NCBI GenBank assembly: GCA_050293845.1
Contig: JBNKNM010000142.1
Coordinates: forward strand, 1-14,385
Origin: Pseudobacteriovorax sp.
GTDB taxonomy: Bacteria > Bdellovibrionota_B > Oligoflexia > Oligoflexales > Oligoflexaceae
DNA: 14,385 nt
Direction of reading: 5' to 3'
The position numbers and the translations under genes are program-made. Below the pieces are notes generated by a model, which was given only the letters and a program-made list of their open reading frames with translations, did no database searches and was not told where the DNA came from. Shown piece after piece: positions 394-14,383 of this stretch (position 1 is the first letter of the stretch; each line of letters begins with the position of its first letter).

Positions 394-460
394 CTTATGC
401 TTTATTTTCTGTTCAGTTCCTTTAGTTTTGCAGATCGTCAAAGCATTAAGGAGCAGCGCT

Positions 461-1216
461 ATGAGCATACGAACAACTGTAATAACCCTTATTTTATTTT
501 ATTCTTCGATAGTGCTGAGTAAACCTCTTAAGATCGGTGTTCTTTATTGGTCGAGTACAATAGAAGGTCAAGTTGCCATGCGTTGTGGATTAGAACAGCG
601 AGCAAAAGAATTACAACAATTGGGAATTTTAGACTTTCAGTTGTTGCCATTTGTAGCCGGCGATGGGACAAATGGAATCCTTAATCAAATTAAGCAATTC
701 AAGCACCTAGTCCTACAGGAAAAAGTCGACGCCATCATCATCCAACCTACGGATAATGCGGCTCTAGCTAGAAGCCTTCAACTTGCAAATAAAAACCGTA
801 TACCTGTAGTGGCATATGACCAGTACATTGTCGGCGGCTCATTATCCTCTTATATCACTTCCAATAACTACCAAGCTGGCCAGCTCAATGCTGAATATAT
901 CTACCCCATATTTCACGATGAAATCAAGATTGTTACCGTTGATGGTGACCCGGCGTCTGTTGCCAATATTCAGCAAGGGCGTCTGACAGTCATTGATAGT
1001 GCGCAATTTTGTGGAGAACTAGGGCGACAAAGCATGCAAACTATATTTGACCTGTTAACAGGCAAGCCGGTATCAAAAAAAATTTTGATTCCGACATTCC
1101 CCATTGTTAAAGAAACTCTTCACATCTACAAGGGATGGAAAGCTAAGATTCCCAAACCCTTCAAAAAAAGTTGGAAGAAAAATGAGCTGTGGAATAATCA
1201 GGCTATTCATCTTTAA
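461..1216 (+). CDS. Sugar-type (class I, RbsB-like/Peripla_BP_4) periplasmic substrate-binding protein with an apparent in-frame internal deletion; possibly non-functional
   Basis: AAGGAG at 448-453 favours ATG 461 over TTG 428. Signal-peptide-like N-terminus; motifs KVDAIIIQPTD, RIPVVAYD, SNNYQAG, IVTVDGDP. Only about 6 residues separate EYI from EIKIVTVDG, versus about 90 in RbsB-like proteins. Confidence 0.8.
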   Translation: MSIRTTVITLILFYSSIVLSKPLKIGVLYWSSTIEGQVAMRCGLEQRAKELQQLGILDFQLLPFVAGDGTNGILNQIKQFKHLVLQEKVDAIIIQPTDNAALARSLQLANKNRIPVVAYDQYIVGGSLSSYITSNNYQAGQLNAEYIYPIFHDEIKIVTVDGDPASVANIQQGRLTVIDSAQFCGELGRQSMQTIFDLLTGKPVSKKILIPTFPIVKETLHIYKGWKAKIPKPFKKSWKKNELWNNQAIHL

Positions 1217-1976
1217 GCTAAGTCTATGCTTTATCATTAGCAAGCTTCTAGCCAGCACTCCTCCACAGATTACTTTAGGGGTATATGAAAGCTGCCCTTA
1301 CTTTTGCTGGGAAAAGCAGCCGGGATATGTTTATAAATTGCTACATCTGTTTTTTGAACATATGGGAACTCGAATGGTAACCAAACAAATCACTTTGGAG
1401 CGCGCATCATTTTTATTAGCCGCTAAGGAGATTGATATTGCAGTGTTTCCCTCTTACGAGCTGCATAGCCAAAGAGAGATTGAACCTTTTGGACCTGCAC
1501 TTGGTGTAAGCTATGCAGGCATCTTGCACTTGAAGCGCCCCCATTCTGGGTTTTGGGACCTTTCTTCTCTGCAAAATACCCATATTGTGGCATCACCCCT
1601 TGGGTTTTTAAAACAACGACTTCAGGAGGTCATCGCCAAAAGCATGCACCACTCTGAAATCACACAAGTTTCGGGGAAGCGAATCGAGCAACGTTTGTTT
1701 AAATTGGTAAAAATGAAGCGCTTTAACTACGCCATACACGACTTTAATATTCTACGATACCAAATCAAAAACCAAAAAGATTCTGAGCTTCAAGTGTCTC
1801 CGTCATCTATACTAGGTTTCTTTCCCCTACGTCTTGCCACCCTTCACAGCCAAATAAAGATATTAAAACTCGGAGGAAAGCTCTCTCAATTCCTAACACG
1901 ACTGCGTCGATCTCCCAGGTTCAAAGAAATATTGCAAACTTATGACATCGATGACTGGTATTACCTCACCTACTAA
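1182..1976 (+). CDS. Family 3-like (amino-acid type) extracellular solute-binding protein
   Basis: Start probably ATG 1182 (hydrophobic signal-like segment follows), overlapping the upstream gene by 35 nt. Motifs ESCPYFC, PGYVYKLL, LERA...KEIDIA, KRFNYAI and C-terminal FKEILQTY match the SBP_bac_3-like pattern. Confidence 0.7.
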   Translation: MSCGIIRLFIFKLSLCFIISKLLASTPPQITLGVYESCPYFCWEKQPGYVYKLLHLFFEHMGTRMVTKQITLERASFLLAAKEIDIAVFPSYELHSQREIEPFGPALGVSYAGILHLKRPHSGFWDLSSLQNTHIVASPLGFLKQRLQEVIAKSMHHSEITQVSGKRIEQRLFKLVKMKRFNYAIHDFNILRYQIKNQKDSELQVSPSSILGFFPLRLATLHSQIKILKLGGKLSQFLTRLRRSPRFKEILQTYDIDDWYYLTY

Positions 1977-2652: not shown

Positions 2653-2885
2653 GCGTTGTTACGACCTTTAAACATATTGAAAATCCTTAAGGATTCCGCT
2701 AGATCGGTAGTTGACCTGCGGGGAACTACACGGCTGATAAAGCGAATCAACCTTTACGAAGACACAGGAGTGTCTGACTTTTGGTAGGCTTAACTGCCAC
2801 CTTTCACGTGGAGCTGAAGTTAATTGTTTTTAACATGCGGAACCTAGATTAACAGGTTAACGGACTAGCAAGCGGGAGACAATGC

Positions 2886-4001
2886 ATGAACGGCGCAATT
2901 TTGAAAGCACTACCAGCTTTCATAACCAAAGAGCCAAAAAGTGCCATGGGTGAAATCATGGAGAACTCAATAAGCATCAAGGACCAAGGTATTTGGCTTA
3001 CAGTTGGTCAGGTAGCCCAAATGGTTGCTCCCGATCACAGCAGAGCATTTGGAGGCAACCTTCGCCAACCTAATTTTCGAAGGCTCCTCAAAGCAGCAGT
3101 CGCCTTTACATTAGGAGAAGGTAACTTTCGTTTGAATCTATCTATGGCAGCAAGCCAGCAACACTTCCAGGATTTTGTAGACAATAACAACCAACTTGAT
3201 GAGGAACAACTAAGTATTCTTCATGATACGGTTCGGTCTATAGAATTCAGAGCAAGCCCTAATGCACCTTCTCAGCATTGTTTTTTAGAGCTAGATAATG
3301 TGCAGATCCTCTATGAAACCCAGGCAGTTCTTCAAACTATTCCTAAATCCTTAAGAAGCTACATACTGTGGCAACTTGGGCATGGTGACCTCCAACAAGT
3401 AACCATGTATGATGGCCGCCCTATACCCAATACCCATGCCCGCGTTGAAGGTTTATCTTCCGCCATAAGGGACTTCGCGTCCTATATTAACCTGCCCATG
3501 GCAGATGCTGTTACTGCCTGGCAAAACGGATTAAGAACAAAAAATGATACCCTGGGCCAAGAGACAAGCGATGTTTTTGAAGAAAAGCTCCGAGCCATTA
3601 GAGAGTACTTCGCTACAGCGACCCAAGACTTACTAAATTTGAATGACCCTTACCGCCAGCGGGCAAGTGCTATTATCCTTTCAGGAGGAGGTGCTAAAGA
3701 CCAGATGGTTTTGGATTGCTTGCGTGAAGAGGTTGAAAGTGGTGGCCATTACAAACTTTTTGCGATTCATGAATTGCCGGTAAATACTCCAGAGCTCAAC
3801 GATCCAGCTTTTACTTGCGTACAAGGGCTCCTCAAAACAGGCAACATAGCACTTGATATTGGTAACTCGTCATTGAAAACAGGTTTTGACGGATCTCGAG
3901 CACAAGCAGTACGATCAAGTAACAGTGATAGGACCGCAAATACTAATCCGCTATTTGGTGGAACAGCTTCGTCAAATCAAAATCCTATGACTTCAGGATA
4001 A
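2886..4001 (+). CDS. ParM/StbA-like actin-fold ATPase, apparently circularly permuted
   Basis: GGGAG at 2874-2878 precedes ATG 2886. Actin-superfamily elements in order: LPAF (aa 9-12), VGQVA (40-44), connect-1 VQILYE144, degenerate phosphate-2 QLGHGD (163-168), adenosine motif IILSGGGA (263-270), connect-2 DPAFTCVQGLL (306-316), then phosphate-1-like IALDIGNSSLK (321-331). Confidence 0.85.
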   Translation: MNGAILKALPAFITKEPKSAMGEIMENSISIKDQGIWLTVGQVAQMVAPDHSRAFGGNLRQPNFRRLLKAAVAFTLGEGNFRLNLSMAASQQHFQDFVDNNNQLDEEQLSILHDTVRSIEFRASPNAPSQHCFLELDNVQILYETQAVLQTIPKSLRSYILWQLGHGDLQQVTMYDGRPIPNTHARVEGLSSAIRDFASYINLPMADAVTAWQNGLRTKNDTLGQETSDVFEEKLRAIREYFATATQDLLNLNDPYRQRASAIILSGGGAKDQMVLDCLREEVESGGHYKLFAIHELPVNTPELNDPAFTCVQGLLKTGNIALDIGNSSLKTGFDGSRAQAVRSSNSDRTANTNPLFGGTASSNQNPMTSG

Positions 4002-4005
4002 GCAC

Positions 4006-4377
4006 GTGGATGATGACAGAATAATATTGAGAATCCCAAAGAATGGATGTGATCGAGAAATTGTGTCAACACTTTTAGAAGACCAAGCTGAATCTCTTCC
4101 ATTCTCTCTACCCCCCTTGGTTCATTGGCCTGCGGGAGCGCGGGCATGCTCGAATCGAGCGATTATATTGATGAGAGCCGGATTATTGTATTTACATCAG
4201 CAAAGCAAGCATTCCACCTATAAAAATGATCACCACAGCAAGCAAAATCAAGAGAATGAAAAAAAAACAGTAGAGCCTATTTCTGATATTATCCCTACTA
4301 AGTCTCCTGAAGCTGATATAGAAGAGCAAACACAAAATATTAAAAAACCCGAATTTGATATTTCTCTATTTCAATAG
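4006..4377 (+). CDS. Putative ParR/StbB-like ribbon-helix-helix adaptor protein
   Basis: Starts 4 nt after the actin-like gene. N-terminal strand RIILRI, helix DREIVSTLL, helix SNRAIILMRAGLLYL, then a polar/acidic linker and a hydrophobic end (FDISLFQ). Size, position and layout fit type II partition adaptors. Confidence 0.6.
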   Translation: MDDDRIILRIPKNGCDREIVSTLLEDQAESLPFSLPPLVHWPAGARACSNRAIILMRAGLLYLHQQSKHSTYKNDHHSKQNQENEKKTVEPISDIIPTKSPEADIEEQTQNIKKPEFDISLFQ

Positions 4378-4391
4378 TATTGAAGTAAATA

Positions 4392-4727
4392 ATGCCCACG
4401 CAATCTGAAAAAGAAAAAACAAAGAAGATTATTCAATCCTTTTCGTCACTTTGGTTTATTGAAGAAGAATCCACTGCTGGCATCGGAACAATTATAGATG
4501 TATGTTATACTTATGAAAGTGCCGTAAATTCTTTAGAAGATTTACGGCAAAAAAAATTGCAAAGCCTCATAAACGAACCACAAGGAATCAGTAAAACTAC
4601 CTTAAACTCATCTTACTATATCGGTCGCGAAGAAGATCCAAACTTTTATCTGCCAATATTCAGAATACTTTCTGCTGAAGTCACACTAAATGCATACGGC
4701 TACAATGCCTTAAACAAATGGCTATAA
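4392..4727 (+). CDS. Hypothetical protein (111 aa)
   Basis: ATG-started ORF 14 nt downstream of the ParR-like gene, same strand, globular-like composition; no family recognised. Confidence 0.6.
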   Translation: MPTQSEKEKTKKIIQSFSSLWFIEEESTAGIGTIIDVCYTYESAVNSLEDLRQKKLQSLINEPQGISKTTLNSSYYIGREEDPNFYLPIFRILSAEVTLNAYGYNALNKWL

Positions 4728-6675: not shown

Positions 6676-6969
6676 CTACTCAGTAAATAAAAAGTCAGAA
6701 GGAGTGACTGGTGCTAGACATTCTTGTTCTCCAACTAAAATCTCACCATCTGACCAAATTACAGGAATATCCGTATGGGGAATGTAGGCAAAATCTTGTT
6801 CTTCTAGAAGAAGATTTAATGCTTCGTATTCTAAAGGGGAAACCTCAACGGAGTACCCACAATCATCAAATGCATAATTATTAAAATGAAAGAAACCCCC
6901 TCCACTTTGCTCCCCCGCAAAAAGTGAACTGGAGAAAATCAATACTATTGCTGTAATTGTCTTTTTCAT
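6676..6969 (-). CDS. Small acidic secreted protein, hypothetical
   Basis: Sec signal MKKTITAIVLIFSSSLFA; ATGA overlap with the upstream regulator; two Cys; Asp/Glu-rich mature part. Confidence 0.8.
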   Translation of the reverse strand: MKKTITAIVLIFSSSLFAGEQSGGGFFHFNNYAFDDCGYSVEVSPLEYEALNLLLEEQDFAYIPHTDIPVIWSDGEILVGEQECLAPVTPSDFLFTE

Positions 6970-7709
6970 TCGATTGCCTCCTTAACATCGATGAAATTCC
7001 CAAGTAGGCTAAACTGCCCAATTCGGGTGGCTTTTTCGTTTCTGTGTTTAGATCTAATTTCGTTCATACGAGCCACATACTCACGTCCTGCCTGTCGCAT
7101 TTCTTCAAAGGCAGCGTCAGAAAGAAGCTCCGAGAAAATCCAATAATGTGCACCCCGACCAATGTTCTCCTGATTGAAGGACTTCGCTAAAAGAGAAATC
7201 TTTTCCAGAATACTAGCGATCGAAGAATCAGAATAATTTTCCGTGAAAGTAAAGTACTTACCATTTACTTCTCGCAGCATGCCTATCGAACAAAGCTCTT
7301 CCGCCCTTTTTAAGCCAGCAATTTCACCCAAATCACGTGCAATACGTTCTTTAGGGACACCATTACTCTGCTGGGCGAGCCCGATAATATACTGATCATA
7401 CTCCTTCCAGCTCAACACCCTCTGAGAGGGGTCAATAAACTTATAGTTACCATCAAAAAGCGGTTTCCAGACTTGGACAAACCTAGGATCGTATTTGCCA
7501 ATCAGTTCATGAATATCTTTACGGGGCATAAATACCGATAGGACTGGTATAATAGTGGTATCAATTCCACATTGAGTTGTTTCATTATTAACAAGGCGTC
7601 TCACTGTAGAGTAAGACAAGCCTGACTTTCTAGCCAAGCTTGTGATGGATCTCTTGGGGTTTTCATCGAGGTACTTGCGAACTTTTTCTCGTACTTCTTC
7701 TATAAGCAT
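6966..7709 (-). CDS. HTH DNA-binding protein (N-terminal XRE-like HTH; C-terminal region resembling TIGR02147/DUF4423-type proteins)
   Basis: SITSLARKSGLSYSTVRRLVN is a clear HTH; a second winged-helix-like segment (ERIARDLG...EELCSIGMLREVNGKY) and a terminal QFSLLG strand follow. Start probably ATG 7709 (GGGA 6 nt upstream); 7721 and 7727 are alternatives. Confidence 0.75.
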   Translation of the reverse strand: MLIEEVREKVRKYLDENPKRSITSLARKSGLSYSTVRRLVNNETTQCGIDTTIIPVLSVFMPRKDIHELIGKYDPRFVQVWKPLFDGNYKFIDPSQRVLSWKEYDQYIIGLAQQSNGVPKERIARDLGEIAGLKRAEELCSIGMLREVNGKYFTFTENYSDSSIASILEKISLLAKSFNQENIGRGAHYWIFSELLSDAAFEEMRQAGREYVARMNEIRSKHRNEKATRIGQFSLLGNFIDVKEAIE

Positions 7710-7863
7710 TTTTAATCCCATCCACACCTATTGGTTGATCCATAAACAAGCATAATCTGCCTGCTTTAGCAATAACGATCTAGTAACATTTTATAAAGAA
7801 TAAAGGAAGGAACTTTCTTCAAAAAACAAGCTTGCGAAACTCGTTATGTAGAGAGAGGAATGG

Positions 7864-9571: not shown

Positions 9572-12500
9572 TTACGCTGCACCTGTGACACGATTGCGAC
9601 CTTTTTCCTTGGATTGATAGAGAGACTCATCAGCACGCCTGACAAGAATTTCTGCCGAGCGTACTTCGTCGTGGAGGTAGGATACTCCTAAGGATGCTGT
9701 CACTCCTAATTTTCCACCCTCATGCTCAATGGGATTTTCTTCAATCGTCGTGCGGATCCTATCAGCGACAATCATTGCCAAATCAAAGGTTGTTTCAGGA
9801 AGTATGACAGATAGCTCCTCACCACCATATCTGGCGACAACGTCAGATTTGCGACAGGTTTGCTTTATAAGATTAGCAACATGCTTCAGTACTTGATCAC
9901 CGACTTGGTGTCCCCACTGATCATTGAAAGTTTTAAAGTGATCGATATCAATCATAATCAAAGATAAATTTCTTTGCTGACGCTGCGATTGCAGGATTTC
10001 TTGTTCCAACATACTTTGGAAGTAATCATGATTATAAAGCCCAGTTAATCCATCCGTTGCAGCTTTTACGGATAACTCTAAACGTCCTGCAGCAGACAAG
10101 CATATTATTTCAAGAGTTTCAATTCGTTCCGCAGTAAAGCTATTGGCAGCACGGTTATTTTCCAGGTACAATAGTCCTACAACTTCAGCAGCATCTTTAC
10201 CACCTACCGTAATAGGCATACAAAGAATAGATCGCACACTATTTTTCATGATATAGGCTTCATGATGTAAAGCAGGCAAGGTATCATTTTCTTCTAATGC
10301 ATTATCAATAACTACTGCTTTAGATGTTCTTTGTGCATAATTGATAAGCCTGATACAAACAGAATCGGATTTTTCAACAGGAATGGATTGCAATATTTTA
10401 GGAATTTCCATATCTACAGAGCCTTCAGCTTCAACAAAAAATTTACCATCTTTCTTTAGGAGGAGAACTCCTTTTTGAGCCCCTGCAAATTCAATGGCAC
10501 TGGAAATTATTTTCTCTAACATGCGTGAATGGATAGTCTCTTCGGCTATAGCTAGCAGAGCTTTTTTAAGAGTCGTAATATCAATAGTAGATGATGACAT
10601 TGTTGCTAGGGAACCCGTCATGGGGCGGTCCCCTAAACTATTTATGATATGCGGATGATCCTGTTCCAGTTGCATGATCTTTCTAATAGCGCCCCACTTA
10701 TGGTAAGAGTAACGAGCTCGTTTCATGTAGGCAATAGCCATAGTCAAACGATTTTCTGCTAGATGAAATTTTGCTGACAACTCATTACCCAAAGCTTCAT
10801 CTTGTAGAAATTGATTCGTGCGAGCCAAGGCAATCGCTTCATCGTAAAGTTGCTGAGCCTTAAAACTTTTTCCTCGAAGTCTAGAAATCTCAGCTTTTAG
10901 AAGCAGATACCTTTGTCCTTGATTAGCTTGACAGCTTTGACTCCAAATTTTGAATTTTTTTATTATTTTTTTGATTTCTTTCATGGCACTTTTTGCTTCA
11001 CTCTTTTGAAGCTTAGGCATTCTGCTAATCAAGGTCAAAGCTCTATAAAAGTAAAAAACAGTACCATTATATGTACCTATTCCTGCCTTAAATTCTTTTT
11101 TCGAAGTATTAGACCATTCGTGAGCTAACTCGTATTGCTCAAAAAAGTAAGCCATTTTCATTTTTAAAAAATAGGTGAGAAATAAACCTGCCGCATCACC
11201 ATTTTGCCTATGTAGAACACACATTTCATCATCATCATAATAATCACCTTTTAATCTCCAGGGAACTACACTCTTATCTTCTACAACGAAGTTAAAGGCT
11301 GCTTGACGATAAAGTTCTAATATATAGGTATTTCCTTTATGATCTAATGATTTAATGACATCGTGATATTTTTCCATATCTTTTAAAACTATAGGAAGCT
11401 CTACACCCGCTAAGAAAGATCGATAGCAATAACCCATGGCTCCATGCACAGCAAATTCTAAATTTCCGGCATCAACCCCACTCTGATAAGCCTTAATTAA
11501 TTCTGGTAGAGTGGATCTTATTGGTTCTTTCCAAGGTCTTAGATATAAATTGAAGGAAACAAGTATAGTTGCTTCGACTTCTCGTGTTTGCATTTTTTCA
11601 TATAACTTGATACCCAGTTCACCAAATTTATACCCTTTTTCATAAGCTCCAAATATTCCGGCTACCATAATTCCGTAATTTGTAAAAGCCAATGCTGAAG
11701 TCGGTGCGATACCATAATTCAAGCTTGTTAAAACTGAGTCACAGATGGATAGTGGAACTTGCTTTGGCATATACAGAAATATACACTGCGACAAAGTATA
11801 CTGGAAATGAACGCGCGCCAAGCGTAAAGGATCTACCATAGGAGGCTTAGCAATAATTTGGCTGAAATTCTTTCCAGTTAGTTTCCACCAACACTTGGCA
11901 AAGCCCCAAAGTATCTGTAATATATTAGGATTACTTGATATCTTTACTCCCAATAAAGTCAGTATTTTTCTCCCTTGCTTCACCGCAGCATTCATGTCGT
12001 TACGTGCGATGGCTGCTTGAACTTGAGTTTCATAAATGGGAATTTTTTGCAGTAGGTTTGTAGCTTTTTCTAGTACGATTTCTCCATAGCGATCCACTTC
12101 CTCTTGCTTACCAGCAAGGAAAGAAACTTCACAAAGATTCTGACAAAAGCTTAAAAGAAGGTCATAATGACTTCCCCAATGCCTCTCCTCGACCTTTGCA
12201 TAAGATTTGCTGAGATATTCGAATGCTAAGGGATACGCAGAAGCATTTTTGGCTTTTTCTGCTGCCTGGATGTTGAGTTTAAGTAAAGCAATGAGTTCAT
12301 GATCTTCTTGTACCAGCTCTATTGAACTATTAAAGTGATTGACAATACTGAATAGGTGATCATCGCGATGATATTTTTCATCAAGATCAAGAAGAGTTTG
12401 CGCCACCTTACGACGGATGAATTTATGCTTTCGAGAAGGGATAAGGTCATAGGCAGCTTGTAAAATTCTATCATGAGCAAAGCGATATTCGATATCAATA

Positions 12501-14383
12501 TCTTGCTCACCGACTTCGATATCAAGTTCTACCAAACGGTAAGACTCACCAATGGGAATGATAAGCCCTTCCTCTATGGCTGGATGTAAGCTTTTTGCGA
12601 CATAGTGACTAGACTCCCCTGATACCTTAGTCAAAGTTTGCAAATCAAAGCTTGAACCGATACACGAAGCCAGTTTAACTAGCTCTATAGTTTTATTTCC
12701 CAGTCTATTTATCCTCTGGGTCATCAAGTCAACAACATTGTCAGTAAGGCCGGCAATCTTAATTTTTTCTAAATTCCAGCTCCATTGGCCTTTATCAGTA
12801 TTGAAATATAGCAGTCTATTTGTATAAAGATTTTTAAGAAACTCTTCGGTAAAAAAAGGGTTTCCACCGGTTTTTTGAAAAACAAGCTTCGAGAGTTCTT
12901 CAGTATTTTGGGTTTTAGTATGAAGGGTATCAGCTATCATTTGATTGAGTTGATGTAATTCAAGCGCCCTCAGTTCGATTTTTAAAACCACCTCATTCCG
13001 AGCATTAAGATCTTCCATTAACTGATCTAAGGGGTGGGTGGGTCCAACGTCCTTATTTCTGAAAGCCCCTATAAAACAAAAATATTGTAATTCATCATCT
13101 GTCAGAATTTTCTCTAAAAGTTTAACAGAAGAAAGATCGATCCATTGAAGATCATCTAAATACATAATTAGGGGATGTTCTTCGCAAGCAAATAACTTAA
13201 TAAAATTCTTAAACAAGATAATGAAGCGATTTTCACTTTCTGCTGCACCCAGTATCGGTGCAGGTTTTTGATGTCCTATAATAAGTTCCAAATCAGGTAC
13301 AATTTCAAGGAGCACTTGACCAATTTCACCAACAGATTTCTGGATTTTTAGTTTCCATTCATTGAGTTTATAGTCTTTTTCACTCAAAATTGAACGACAA
13401 AGCTCCCGTAAAGCTTCTGAGATAGCACTATAGGGAATACTTCGCTTGAGCTTTTCAAATTTTCCTTGAATGAATAAACTATTTTGATTGCTTATTTGTT
13501 TAGCAAGCTCTTTAGCTAAGGAGCTTTTACCTGTTCCTGGGTACCCACTTATAAGTACTGATTGTTTATTCCCACTTGCAACCCTATTGTAGAGGTCTTG
13601 CAAAAGCTTCAACTCTTTTTCACGACCATAGAGGTTTTGAGTGATGCGCAGTTGATCAGAAATATCCTGCATGCATAGAGGAAATGCACGCACATAGCCG
13701 CTACTTTCCAAGGCATCAGAACACTTTATTAAATCAGCTCGTACACCCCAAGCGCTTTGATAGCGATCTTCAACATTTTTATTCAGTAATTTGATAATAA
13801 TATCTGAAAGAATCTCAGGTATTCCGGAATCTATGTCACGTGGTGGAATGGGGCGTTTTGCAATATGGTAGTGTATCAATTGAATGGGATCTTCAGAAAT
13901 AAAAGGAAGTTTGCCAGTAAAGATTTCGTATAGAGTAATACCAAATGAATATAAATCAGTCCGACTATCTAAAAACCGATTCATCCGCCCTGTTTGTTCC
14001 GGAGACATATAGGGCAAGCTACCCTCTGTTACCTGGTTTGAATTCCTACTCGCATGCTCTCTTGATAACTTCGTCGAAATTCCAAAATCAATGATTTGGA
14101 TCAAACCATTTTTTGGATTATACAGAATATTACTAGGATTTATGTCTTTGTGGATAATATTATTGGAGTGCAATTCAACTAATGCACCTGCCAACTGAAT
14201 ACTAATCTTCAAAGCTTCTGGGAGGCTAAAAATTTTCTGATCCATTATGGATCGCAGAGAATCCGACTGGGAATCTTCAAAAACAAGCATAGGGCAGTTG
14301 TGAAATTTTTCCAGTCCTAGTATTTTGGGAGCATGCTTTAAGTTTATTTCGGTGAGTATTTCAAACTGATTTTTATACCGAAC
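9572..14383 (-). CDS. Multidomain Ser/Thr kinase - AAA (P-loop) ATPase - helical region - GAF - GGDEF diguanylate cyclase; 5'-truncated by the window edge
   Basis: The frame stays open upstream of ATG 14290 to the edge (VRYKNQFEILTEINLKHAPKILGLEKFHNCP, kinase N-lobe-like). Kinase HKDINPSN, DFG, YMSPEQ; Walker A GYPGTGKS; Walker B YLDDLQWID; GGNPFF; GAF SILCMPI..GLLYLEN; TDGLTGLYN, DIDHFK, I-site RKSD, RYGGEEL. Confidence 0.95.
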   Translation of the reverse strand, partial: VRYKNQFEILTEINLKHAPKILGLEKFHNCPMLVFEDSQSDSLRSIMDQKIFSLPEALKISIQLAGALVELHSNNIIHKDINPSNILYNPKNGLIQIIDFGISTKLSREHASRNSNQVTEGSLPYMSPEQTGRMNRFLDSRTDLYSFGITLYEIFTGKLPFISEDPIQLIHYHIAKRPIPPRDIDSGIPEILSDIIIKLLNKNVEDRYQSAWGVRADLIKCSDALESSGYVRAFPLCMQDISDQLRITQNLYGREKELKLLQDLYNRVASGNKQSVLISGYPGTGKSSLAKELAKQISNQNSLFIQGKFEKLKRSIPYSAISEALRELCRSILSEKDYKLNEWKLKIQKSVGEIGQVLLEIVPDLELIIGHQKPAPILGAAESENRFIILFKNFIKLFACEEHPLIMYLDDLQWIDLSSVKLLEKILTDDELQYFCFIGAFRNKDVGPTHPLDQLMEDLNARNEVVLKIELRALELHQLNQMIADTLHTKTQNTEELSKLVFQKTGGNPFFTEEFLKNLYTNRLLYFNTDKGQWSWNLEKIKIAGLTDNVVDLMTQRINRLGNKTIELVKLASCIGSSFDLQTLTKVSGESSHYVAKSLHPAIEEGLIIPIGESYRLVELDIEVGEQDIDIEYRFAHDRILQAAYDLIPSRKHKFIRRKVAQTLLDLDEKYHRDDHLFSIVNHFNSSIELVQEDHELIALLKLNIQAAEKAKNASAYPLAFEYLSKSYAKVEERHWGSHYDLLLSFCQNLCEVSFLAGKQEEVDRYGEIVLEKATNLLQKIPIYETQVQAAIARNDMNAAVKQGRKILTLLGVKISSNPNILQILWGFAKCWWKLTGKNFSQIIAKPPMVDPLRLARVHFQYTLSQCIFLYMPKQVPLSICDSVLTSLNYGIAPTSALAFTNYGIMVAGIFGAYEKGYKFGELGIKLYEKMQTREVEATILVSFNLYLRPWKEPIRSTLPELIKAYQSGVDAGNLEFAVHGAMGYCYRSFLAGVELPIVLKDMEKYHDVIKSLDHKGNTYILELYRQAAFNFVVEDKSVVPWRLKGDYYDDDEMCVLHRQNGDAAGLFLTYFLKMKMAYFFEQYELAHEWSNTSKKEFKAGIGTYNGTVFYFYRALTLISRMPKLQKSEAKSAMKEIKKIIKKFKIWSQSCQANQGQRYLLLKAEISRLRGKSFKAQQLYDEAIALARTNQFLQDEALGNELSAKFHLAENRLTMAIAYMKRARYSYHKWGAIRKIMQLEQDHPHIINSLGDRPMTGSLATMSSSTIDITTLKKALLAIAEETIHSRMLEKIISSAIEFAGAQKGVLLLKKDGKFFVEAEGSVDMEIPKILQSIPVEKSDSVCIRLINYAQRTSKAVVIDNALEENDTLPALHHEAYIMKNSVRSILCMPITVGGKDAAEVVGLLYLENNRAANSFTAERIETLEIICLSAAGRLELSVKAATDGLTGLYNHDYFQSMLEQEILQSQRQQRNLSLIMIDIDHFKTFNDQWGHQVGDQVLKHVANLIKQTCRKSDVVARYGGEELSVILPETTFDLAMIVADRIRTTIEENPIEHEGGKLGVTASLGVSYLHDEVRSAEILVRRADESLYQSKEKGRNRVTGAA

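Follow-up and report, generated by a model that had tools for sequence, protein, structure and literature searches.

A three-gene ParMR-like operon of Pseudobacteriovorax sp. with a predicted circularly permuted actin-like protein

The stretch of DNA analysed here, referred to as the window, is an entire contig (C142) of 14,385 bases from a Pseudobacteriovorax sp. draft genome of 6.68 Mb, which consists of 741 contigs and is 96% complete. At 2886..4727 of the + strand it carries a cassette of three genes that is very probably an operon for a ParMR-type actin-filament module. Taken jointly, the evidence is read as a type II (ParMRC-like) system built on a permuted ParM, with a ParR-like adaptor and in a copy that is fixed in its host, and the probability of this reading is put at roughly 60%. 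A positioning or cytoskeletal function of the host-fixed copy in this genome is a possibility rated a little below even. Measured against classical ParMRC, the cassette departs in two respects, namely the order of the motifs in the actin-like protein and the lack of an adjacent parC array, and it is ParMR-like in the features tested.

The three open reading frames (ORFs) were taken from the ORF listing, and the products of genes 1 and 2 are called M and R.
2886..4001, + strand: gene 1 (M), 371 aa, ATG start
4006..4377, + strand: gene 2 (R), 123 aa, GTG start
4392..4727, + strand: gene 3, 111 aa, ATG start

Genes 1 and 2 are separated by 4 nt (4002-4005) and genes 2 and 3 by 14 nt (4378-4391), and GGGAG is found 8 nt upstream of the ATG of gene 1. 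These coordinates and gaps reproduce those of a first-pass annotation, made from the sequence alone, which had described three + strand ORFs as a ParMR-like operon with a possible third component and had proposed to check the gene order in relatives. The identical order of M, R and gene 3 was found in three further genomes (loci L009, L010 and L011), so the arrangement is not a chance string of ORFs. None of the three products has a match in Pfam, NCBIfam or PHROGs.

The description of gene 1 as actin-like is not obtainable from family searches, because the 371-aa product belongs to no Pfam or NCBIfam family and has no sequence match in the Protein Data Bank (PDB) at E<=10 (phmmer). Residues 1-311 and two C-terminal segments of 29 and 45 aa likewise have no Pfam match, and in NCBIfam a weak match to anhydro-MurNAc kinase was obtained (E 0.083). 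A word-index search with M returned 16 proteins, the named ones being from Pseudobacteriovorax and Oligoflexus and one bearing the UniRef name 'Plasmid segregation protein'. A profile made from an alignment of M homologues (A1) was scored against 1.84 billion representatives at E<=1e-3 and reached only 43 clusters, and the M family is therefore small.

The fold was identified by structure prediction. An AlphaFold2 model of M, built on A1, has a predicted local distance difference test score (pLDDT) of 87 and a predicted template modelling score (pTM) of 0.84. Using this model, Foldseek gave as best matches pCBH ParM (E 3.9e-12), Ta0583, Dh-cParM1, B. thuringiensis ParM, CorM and R1 ParM, with ParM, Alp and actin structures in the range from 4e-12 to 1e-10; the complex of R1 ParM with a ParR peptide (entry 4a62) was also among the fold matches. 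Structure alignment with VIA-align gave the following scores.
M model against Dh-cParM1 (8x1i): Z 22.7, root-mean-square deviation 3.2, 294 residues aligned
M model against pCBH ParM: Z 22.3
M model against CorM (9rmi): Z 19.9
M model against MamK, MreB and actin: Z about 17.4-17.9

Kinase and Hsp70 chains are absent among the top fold matches listed. M has the two-domain fold of the actin (ASKHA) group, and its nearest structures by AlphaFold2, Foldseek and VIA-align are ParMs; the earlier label of gene 1 as actin-like is right at the level of the fold only. The motifs of the putative nucleotide site, and the tail of the protein, are placed as follows.
3369..3398, + strand: phosphate-2-like motif W162-Q171 (WQLGHGDLQQ), with Q163, G165, H166, G167, D168 and Q170 invariant in A1
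3675..3701, + strand: adenosine-type motif I264-D272 (ILSGGGAKD), with S266, G267 and G268 invariant and K271 and D272 at least 90% conserved in A1
3846..3887, + strand: putative relocated phosphate-1 beta-hairpin I321-F334 (D324-x-G326-x-x-x-x-K331), with model strands 321-324 and 329-334 and a block pLDDT of 86
3912..3998, + strand: disordered C-terminal extension, residues 343-371, with pLDDT <50 at 343-368

By its position in the fold, W162-Q171 would be phosphate 2. E144 is invariant in A1 and located at the hinge helix, and from this position we take it to be the catalytic Glu of ParM. M most likely binds ATP and polymerises. The C-terminal extension occurs only in the window clade (P0001 and P0005-P0011) and is absent from the other rows of A1.

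Motif order, alignment ranges and the model together make it highly likely that the M family is a natural circular permutant of the actin fold. D-x-G-x-x-x-x-K is the form of the actin-fold phosphate-1 loop, and in M it stands at 324-331 of 371 residues, at odds with the canonical ParM/Alp order in which phosphate 1 comes first. D324, G326 and K331 are at least 90% conserved in A1, and 50 of the 51 full-length family rows carry a C-terminal DxG[NHRS], the exception being P0017, which has a divergent end. There is no phosphate-1-type motif at the N-terminus of M; the chain opens with LPAFITKEP, which in our judgement resembles the strand after the first hairpin of actin and ParM.

The VIA-align run, a sequential structure alignment, aligned model residues 2-320 to the targets from residue about 18-23 onward. 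Model residues 2-3 pair with target residues 17-30 in almost every one of the 50 rows shown (with later residues if the target is extended at its N-terminus), and the last aligned model residue is 320. Left unaligned are the first 17-22 residues of the targets, which form their first hairpin, and the confident C-terminal hairpin 321-334 of the model. Among the distant profile hits, P0055, P0056 and P0060 (E 7e-5 to 7e-4) match ALP_N from position 17-38 and carry a C-terminal DIGN; in P0056 and P0060 the match starts at profile position 17-18, corresponding to their own residues 2-4. In the canonical hit P0057, ALP_N is matched from profile position 1 and the motif is N-terminal. A paralogue of M in the window's own genome, on the phage-like contig C25 described below, matches the phrog_691 'partition protein' from profile position 26. 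The first-pass annotation, in reading gene 1 as an actin-like gene, had overlooked this probable rearrangement. No published description of a permuted ParM or bacterial actin was found in a search outside subscription-only papers.

Another actin-like gene was observed in 5 of 14 genomes of a sister genus (g6; L046-L050). Its product matches ALP_N only from position 9-18 and has a C-terminal DxG motif, and the next ORF encodes 110-119 aa with an adaptor-like layout, for example at G013:C1:1153514-1153897 in a single-contig genome of 7.6 Mb. The same small membrane-protein neighbour is found at L047-L049, in all three loci. These features therefore point to a second permuted actin pair in sister-genus chromosomes.

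Gene 2 would supply the adaptor of the system. Alignments A2 and A3 divide R into three parts.
4006-4212, + strand: conserved N-terminal domain, residues 1-69
between domain and tail, + strand: variable low-complexity linker
4339-4374, + strand: conserved C-terminal tail, residues 112-123

The N-terminal domain comprises a hydrophobic strand-like stretch, a helix, a conserved LPFxLP...WP loop and a helix opening with S/T-x-R-A, and it is conserved between mobile and window-clade copies; the tail ends with FDISLFQ in the window clade. Word-index searches for homologues of R and of gene 3 returned only the query proteins themselves. With the A3 profile, built from nine gene 2 products, an R homologue was found directly 3' of M in 14 of 15 distinct loci, nine of them from the training set and five independent (L020, L072, L073, L075 and L076). 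The exception is an Aeromonas plasmid with an unrelated 119-aa ORF in the position of R. The first-pass annotation had let its proposal depend on gene 2 either modelling as a ribbon-helix-helix (RHH) dimer or co-occurring with the actin gene, and R does stand beside M in these 14 loci.

A complex of M residues 1-342 with R residues 80-123 was predicted in three runs, together with three controls. The interface score ipSAE was 0.72, 0.71 and 0.69 for M with R and 0.00 for all three controls, with at least 73% of the contacts common to the runs and a partner pLDDT of at least 46; the mark used for ipSAE is reached by 116 of 157 solved complexes and by 2 of 215 mismatched pairs. The predicted contacts join R 112-123 to M 84, 91, 102, 137-150, 172, 178-184 and 317-319. 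The contacted surface consists of the hinge helix and the cleft between subdomains IA and IIA, which is the site of the ParR peptide in the solved R1 complex. These predictions suggest that the R tail binds the M cleft. Co-folding of the actin with the gene 2 tail had been among the earlier proposals, and in the prediction the tail docks in a ParM-type cleft (ipSAE 0.71 versus 0.00 for the best control). The strand-helix-helix layout with flexible tail claimed for gene 2 at the same time is upheld as to its two helices and low-complexity tail, and the strand is absent from the model, whose pLDDT of only 55 is too low for a fold search. The likeness to R1 ParR suggested in that annotation was not borne out: there is no ParR match in Pfam or the PDB at E<=10, and in the Atlas the nearest family-bearing cluster of R is PF10784 at 0.79, a weak lead. 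Mediator Med9 and TFIIH Ssl1 were considered as relatives of R and rejected as chance-level matches at E<=10. R is thus best described as a putative ParR-like adaptor, by layout and predicted contact and not by sequence family.

The possible third component of the earlier annotation gains from the finding that gene 3 is conserved after gene 2 in all four window-clade genomes, the window included; the homologues in L009, L010 and L011 are 23-26% identical. A gene 3 profile (A4) found no match in the 17 other loci searched, and gene 3 is single-copy in the window's own genome. No Atlas lead was obtained for it (best 0.84, recognition below the mark). Gene 3 is a clade-specific addition, which may modulate how the filaments behave or how cargo is attached. 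In three Silvanigrella-type loci a different, conserved ORF of 76-78 aa follows R (L017:2082-2318, L073:6381-6611 and L076:6390-6626); this ORF was compared with gene 3 and discarded as unrelated (hhalign probability 0.07).

Beyond the window clade, copies of the M-R pair reside on mobile DNA. An M relative of 41.6% identity is encoded by pGTC16762-3, a circular plasmid of 44.8 kb from Pigmentibacter ruber, and eight Aeromonas plasmids of 190-373 kb each encode a member of the permuted family at 30-37% identity, which is annotated 'hypothetical protein' and followed by an ORF of 119 aa. On one of these, Aeromonas media plasmid pAeme3 (NZ_CP038446.1; L021), a MobH relaxase lies 2.3 kb downstream of the M relative. 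A predicted viral contig with the M-R pair is 99.98% identical to a stretch of a Silvanigrella genome bearing baseplate genes. Two metagenome contigs with the pair carry, one, what we take from its N-terminal sequence to be a TrwC-type relaxase and, the other, what we likewise take by reading its sequence to be an endolysin. The phages collection gave no tblastn match to M.

The window genome itself holds an M-R paralogue at C25:14438-15837 of the 43.2-kb contig G000:C25 (L023-L025), with M at 32% identity. This contig looks like a complete tailed-phage genome, with genes for terminase, portal, head, head-protease, sheath, tube, tape measure, baseplate, endolysin, two methyltransferases and repressors. 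No integrase was detected on it at E<=1e-5, and no terminal overlap of at least 15 nt; it is a candidate phage-plasmid. Its M paralogue matches the phrog_691 'partition protein' at E 2.6e-8 and ALP_N at E 1.6e-4, below the cut-off. Three of the relatives from Silvanigrella and Pigmentibacter have repeats directly upstream of M.
L016:4258-4366: 38-nt inverted repeat
L017:577-704: 24-27-nt repeats
L020:5843-5982: 45-nt direct repeats

These repeats have a common GACACT/AGTGTC core and are candidate parC, centromere or operator sites of the mobile versions. It appears that the ancestors of the M-R pair were plasmid and tailed-phage partition modules.

The window clade differs from these relatives. 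In a quick tree, P0001 and P0005-P0011 form a clade with support 100, a stem of 0.88 and tips of 0.09-0.27, the median tip of the whole tree being 0.49; the clade, which consists of Pseudobacteriovorax/Oligoflexus-like genomes, seems to evolve slowly. In the three other clade genomes the cassette lies on contigs of 561, 280 and 122 kb. Within 7.5 kb on either side, all three orthologous loci hold signalling, transport and metabolic genes and no phage, integrase, plasmid or transposon family, and the same is true of the window. The window is also genome-typical in composition, with a GC content of 39.2% against 41.1 +/- 2.0 and a tetranucleotide correlation of 0.978 (rank 137 of 204). M is 70%, 75% and 62% identical to the window copy in G001, G002 and G005, and the flanking POT transporter is 82%, 63% and 67% identical, a comparable level with a different ranking. 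A two-gene relative is found at 1.155 Mb in a genome that is a single contig of 2.95 Mb (G040), which speaks against a plasmid. The slow clade, the added gene 3, the lost repeats, the ordinary neighbours and the large contigs together argue for a host-fixed cargo-positioning system, and the window copy is probably host-fixed. Between a secondary replicon and a domesticated system, which the first-pass annotation had named as alternatives, the evidence leans to the host-fixed one.

A parC-type repeat array is present neither in the window nor in any of the three orthologous loci. One smaller cluster was noticed.
2790..2861, no strand assigned: cluster of TTAAC/GTTAA pentamers, with 6 of the 31 TTAAC sites of the window in 72 bp, within the 98-nt upstream region

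The motif was chosen post hoc, and the cluster is a candidate operator or centromere-like site for R.

Several observations weigh against the joint reading. No ParM, StbA or ALP sequence model reaches M, which matches none of the curated ParM/Alp families (Pfam ALP_N, ParM_N and StbA; NCBIfam). In phosphate 2 the usual opening acidic residue (Asp) is replaced by an invariant Gln, Q163 in A1, and given this residue the ATPase chemistry of M may differ. The three-dimensional site of hairpin 321-334 is putative, the permutation resting on motif order, alignment ranges and the secondary structure of the model; the 40-aa C-termini of six out of six members have no ALP_N match in Pfam, where a stray OrfB_IS605 match was obtained (E 0.072). 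The AlphaFold2 model of the R monomer contains helices 16-26 and 50-69 and no strand, none of the nine members of the R profile matches a ParR or RHH family in Pfam (PF10784 included) at E<=10, and in the PDB the profile finds no ParR or RHH chain at the same threshold. The score of the M-R complex may partly reflect likeness to the solved ParM-ParR peptide complex (4a62). As to the genome, the window, 14.4 kb long, makes up just one of the 741 contigs of the draft, and the host-fixed status of the cassette is no more than probable; the gene is patchy, occurring in 5 of 41 related genomes, the window's own included; and the cassette is the sole gene content common to the four loci, whose flanks are not syntenic. 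The last point is softened by the POT transporter: in a same-genus genome its neighbourhood matches in the transporter itself only, and missing synteny therefore says little on mobility. The 400 kb around the orthologous cassette of G005 (G005:C4:155001-555000; L026-L045) contain 0 tRNAs; among 80 ORFs of 400-1000 aa there, no informational core gene was recognised, whereas proA, acs, sppA, cls and otsAB were.

These last data bear on the explanation that a large secondary replicon, a megaplasmid or chromid, uses the cassette as its working partition system, with R binding a centromere and M filaments separating the copies. This explanation is considered unlikely. In its favour, plasmids of 45-373 kb carry relatives of the pair, mobile and window-clade copies share a conserved N-terminal domain of R, and the TTAAC cluster upstream of M could serve as a centromere. 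In all four genomes dnaA and the best ParB gene sit on contigs other than that of M, and in the three relatives the M contigs lack dnaA and any ParB_N gene. The control region of 400 kb on G005:C1 has 2 tRNAs and encodes GroEL, SecDF, UvrA, PurA, PurB, pyruvate kinase, PBP1A and CoxA, unlike C4, the screens differing in threshold and sample (C4, E<=1e-60 with 9 longer ORFs dropped; C1, E<=1e-100 with 80 of 95 ORFs). However, the window genome has 50 tRNAs in 6.68 Mb, so that 0 versus 2 tRNAs is within chance, and C4 does carry proA, acs, sppA, cls and otsAB. Neither the window nor the 7.5-kb surroundings of the three orthologous loci contain an initiator, relaxase or conjugation family. The four loci have only the cassette in common, which leaves no conserved rep-par unit, the repeat arrays of the plasmid and phage relatives are missing and the composition is typical of the genome.

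An integrated phage or plasmid could also have left the cassette behind, either as cargo that still serves the element or as a decaying remnant, in both cases with no host role. Such an origin would account for the paralogue in a complete-looking tailed-phage contig of the same genome, for the other phage- and plasmid-borne relatives, for the patchy occurrence (5/41 genomes) and for the non-syntenic flanks. It would also fit the discordant rankings of identity, which run G002 75%, G001 70% and G005 62% for M and G001 82%, G005 67% and G002 63% for the transporter. Decay is hard to reconcile with three intact ORFs in four of four genomes, M identities of 62-75% with all motifs kept and short clade branches, and no phage, integrase or transposase family is found in the window or within 7.5 kb of the three orthologues. 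In run X1, the DNA depth across the cassette equals that of the flanks. This explanation is regarded as quite improbable. That M is a non-polymerising, kinase- or chaperone-like actin-fold ATPase with unrelated small proteins downstream is the least probable of these explanations: the lack of a ParM sequence match, Q163 at phosphate 2 and the weak anhydro-MurNAc kinase match (E 0.083) would suit it, but M is structurally most similar to ParMs that form filaments, which score well above MreB and actin, with no kinase or Hsp70 chain among the top rows listed, the adaptor layout and predicted cleft binding are ParR-like, the paralogue matches a phage partition family and the relatives occupy partition-gene positions on plasmids.

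Under the joint reading of a permuted, host-fixed ParMR-like system, the following mechanism is proposed. The phosphate-1 hairpin of M would be supplied from the C-terminus, and E144, the phosphate-2-like motif and the adenosine motif would be retained. The tail of R (residues 112-123) would insert between subdomains IA and IIA of M, and the N-terminal domain of R, which is probably dimeric, would hold the cargo. This cargo would most likely be DNA, possibly bound at the TTAAC cluster upstream of M. The window clade would have gained gene 3 and the disordered M tail and lost the large upstream repeats. The host-fixed system would then position cellular cargo, with gene 3 as a clade-specific modulator. 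It is tentatively suggested, at somewhat less than even odds, that in the Pseudobacteriovorax/Oligoflexus group of the Oligoflexia a partition module of phage or plasmid origin became a cytoskeletal or positioning system of the host, with a permuted actin, a third subunit and a disordered tail on the actin.

The rest of the window consists of ordinary genes. By Pfam, the flanks encode a periplasmic binding protein, a DUF2279 lipoprotein, a helix-turn-helix (HTH) protein, a POT transporter and a kinase-AAA-GAF-GGDEF protein. This agrees with the first-pass annotation, which had described transport and signalling flanks and no rep, integrase, relaxase or phage gene; no such family was matched in the window (Pfam, 13 ORFs; PHROGs, 9 ORFs). 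The ORF at 428-1216 (+) covers only the first 114 of the 258 positions of Peripla_BP_4 and overlaps a family-less ORF at 1104-1976, and 428-1976 (+) may be a frameshifted or split binding-protein gene. At 9572-14383 (-) there is a protein of >1,570 aa with Ser/Thr kinase, AAA_16, TPR, GAF and GGDEF domains that runs past the contig end. The 253-aa protein at 6966-7727 (-), with an HTH at its N-terminus, is a member of a family that has 12 copies in the window genome (22-62% identity). A homologue of it lies near the M-R pair of C25, and it was considered as a partner of the cassette; with 12 copies in the genome this is attributed to coincidence, and the small ORFs beside 6966-7727 and beside its C25 counterpart are unrelated to each other.

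A scan of the window for promoters and terminators gave counts no higher than in shuffles. In a root-metagenome RNA library (run X4), which was itself found via this stretch, two contigs are identical to 3204-3362 and 3679-3840, both within gene 1, and may be a weak hint of gene 1 expression; X4 covers nothing else in the window, and X3 covers only short pieces.

To our knowledge, a single chain topology is common to actin-fold proteins, from MreB to eukaryotic actin. If the permutation is real, actin filaments would tolerate relocation of the phosphate-1 hairpin, and the permuted ParM family would be a natural experiment in the construction of the nucleotide site and of the contacts within filaments. 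The family spans Aeromonas megaplasmids, a Pigmentibacter plasmid and phages and is invisible to standard ParM models, and type II partition systems are therefore under-counted. The window clade may be a second host takeover of a partition machine after CorMR, with an extra subunit; if true, this would be a second, independent repurposing of the CorMR kind. A named relative, Pseudobacteriovorax antillogorgiicola, could perhaps be obtained for study.

Among known systems, ParMRC of plasmid R1 and the other plasmid ParMs (pCBH, pSK41, B. thuringiensis ParM, Alp7A and AlfA) are, like M, actin folds and are the nearest ones to it. ParMRC has the same operon order, M then R, and its adaptor likewise has an N-terminal domain, a flexible linker and a tail in the IA/IIA cleft (4a62), which for R is predicted. 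The relatives of the window cassette are plasmid- or phage-borne with repeats upstream of M, as in ParMRC. The differences are that the phosphate-1 hairpin is N-terminal in ParMRC and C-terminal in M, that M has no Pfam or NCBIfam ParM/ALP match and R no detectable similarity to the ParR family, and that the window copy has a third gene and no adjacent parC-like array.

Closer in context are the chromosome-encoded Dh-cParM1 and Cb-cParM (PMC12270681), of which Dh-cParM1 (8x1i) is the best VIA-align match of M. As far as the accessible parts of that paper go, these too are ParM-ParR pairs in a chromosome-like context, conserved in related species. They are of Firmicutes origin and are treated there as ordinary ParMs, the stem 'permut' being absent from the accessible text, whereas M is probably permuted. 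For Cb-cParCMR a parC with palindromes is reported (PMC12270681), and none was found at the window copy.

The CorMR system of Anabaena sp. PCC 7120 is described, in the portion of the preprint available, as a chromosome-fixed ParMR pair repurposed from DNA segregation (10.1101/2025.06.27.661541). CorR binds the membrane via an N-terminal amphipathic helix, whereas the N-terminus of R is an acidic stretch, and no such helix is apparent by eye. The same portion of the text mentions neither a permuted CorM (the stem 'permut' has 0 occurrences) nor a third gene, in contrast to the probably permuted M and the gene 3 of the window cassette (10.1101/2025.06.27.661541). As to vertical fixation of the CorMR type, the window cassette forms a tight clade, lies on large contigs and has no mobile genes nearby, but its flanks are not syntenic. 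Both systems have a clade-specific disordered extension of the actin, which is N-terminal in CorM and C-terminal in M (10.1101/2025.06.27.661541).

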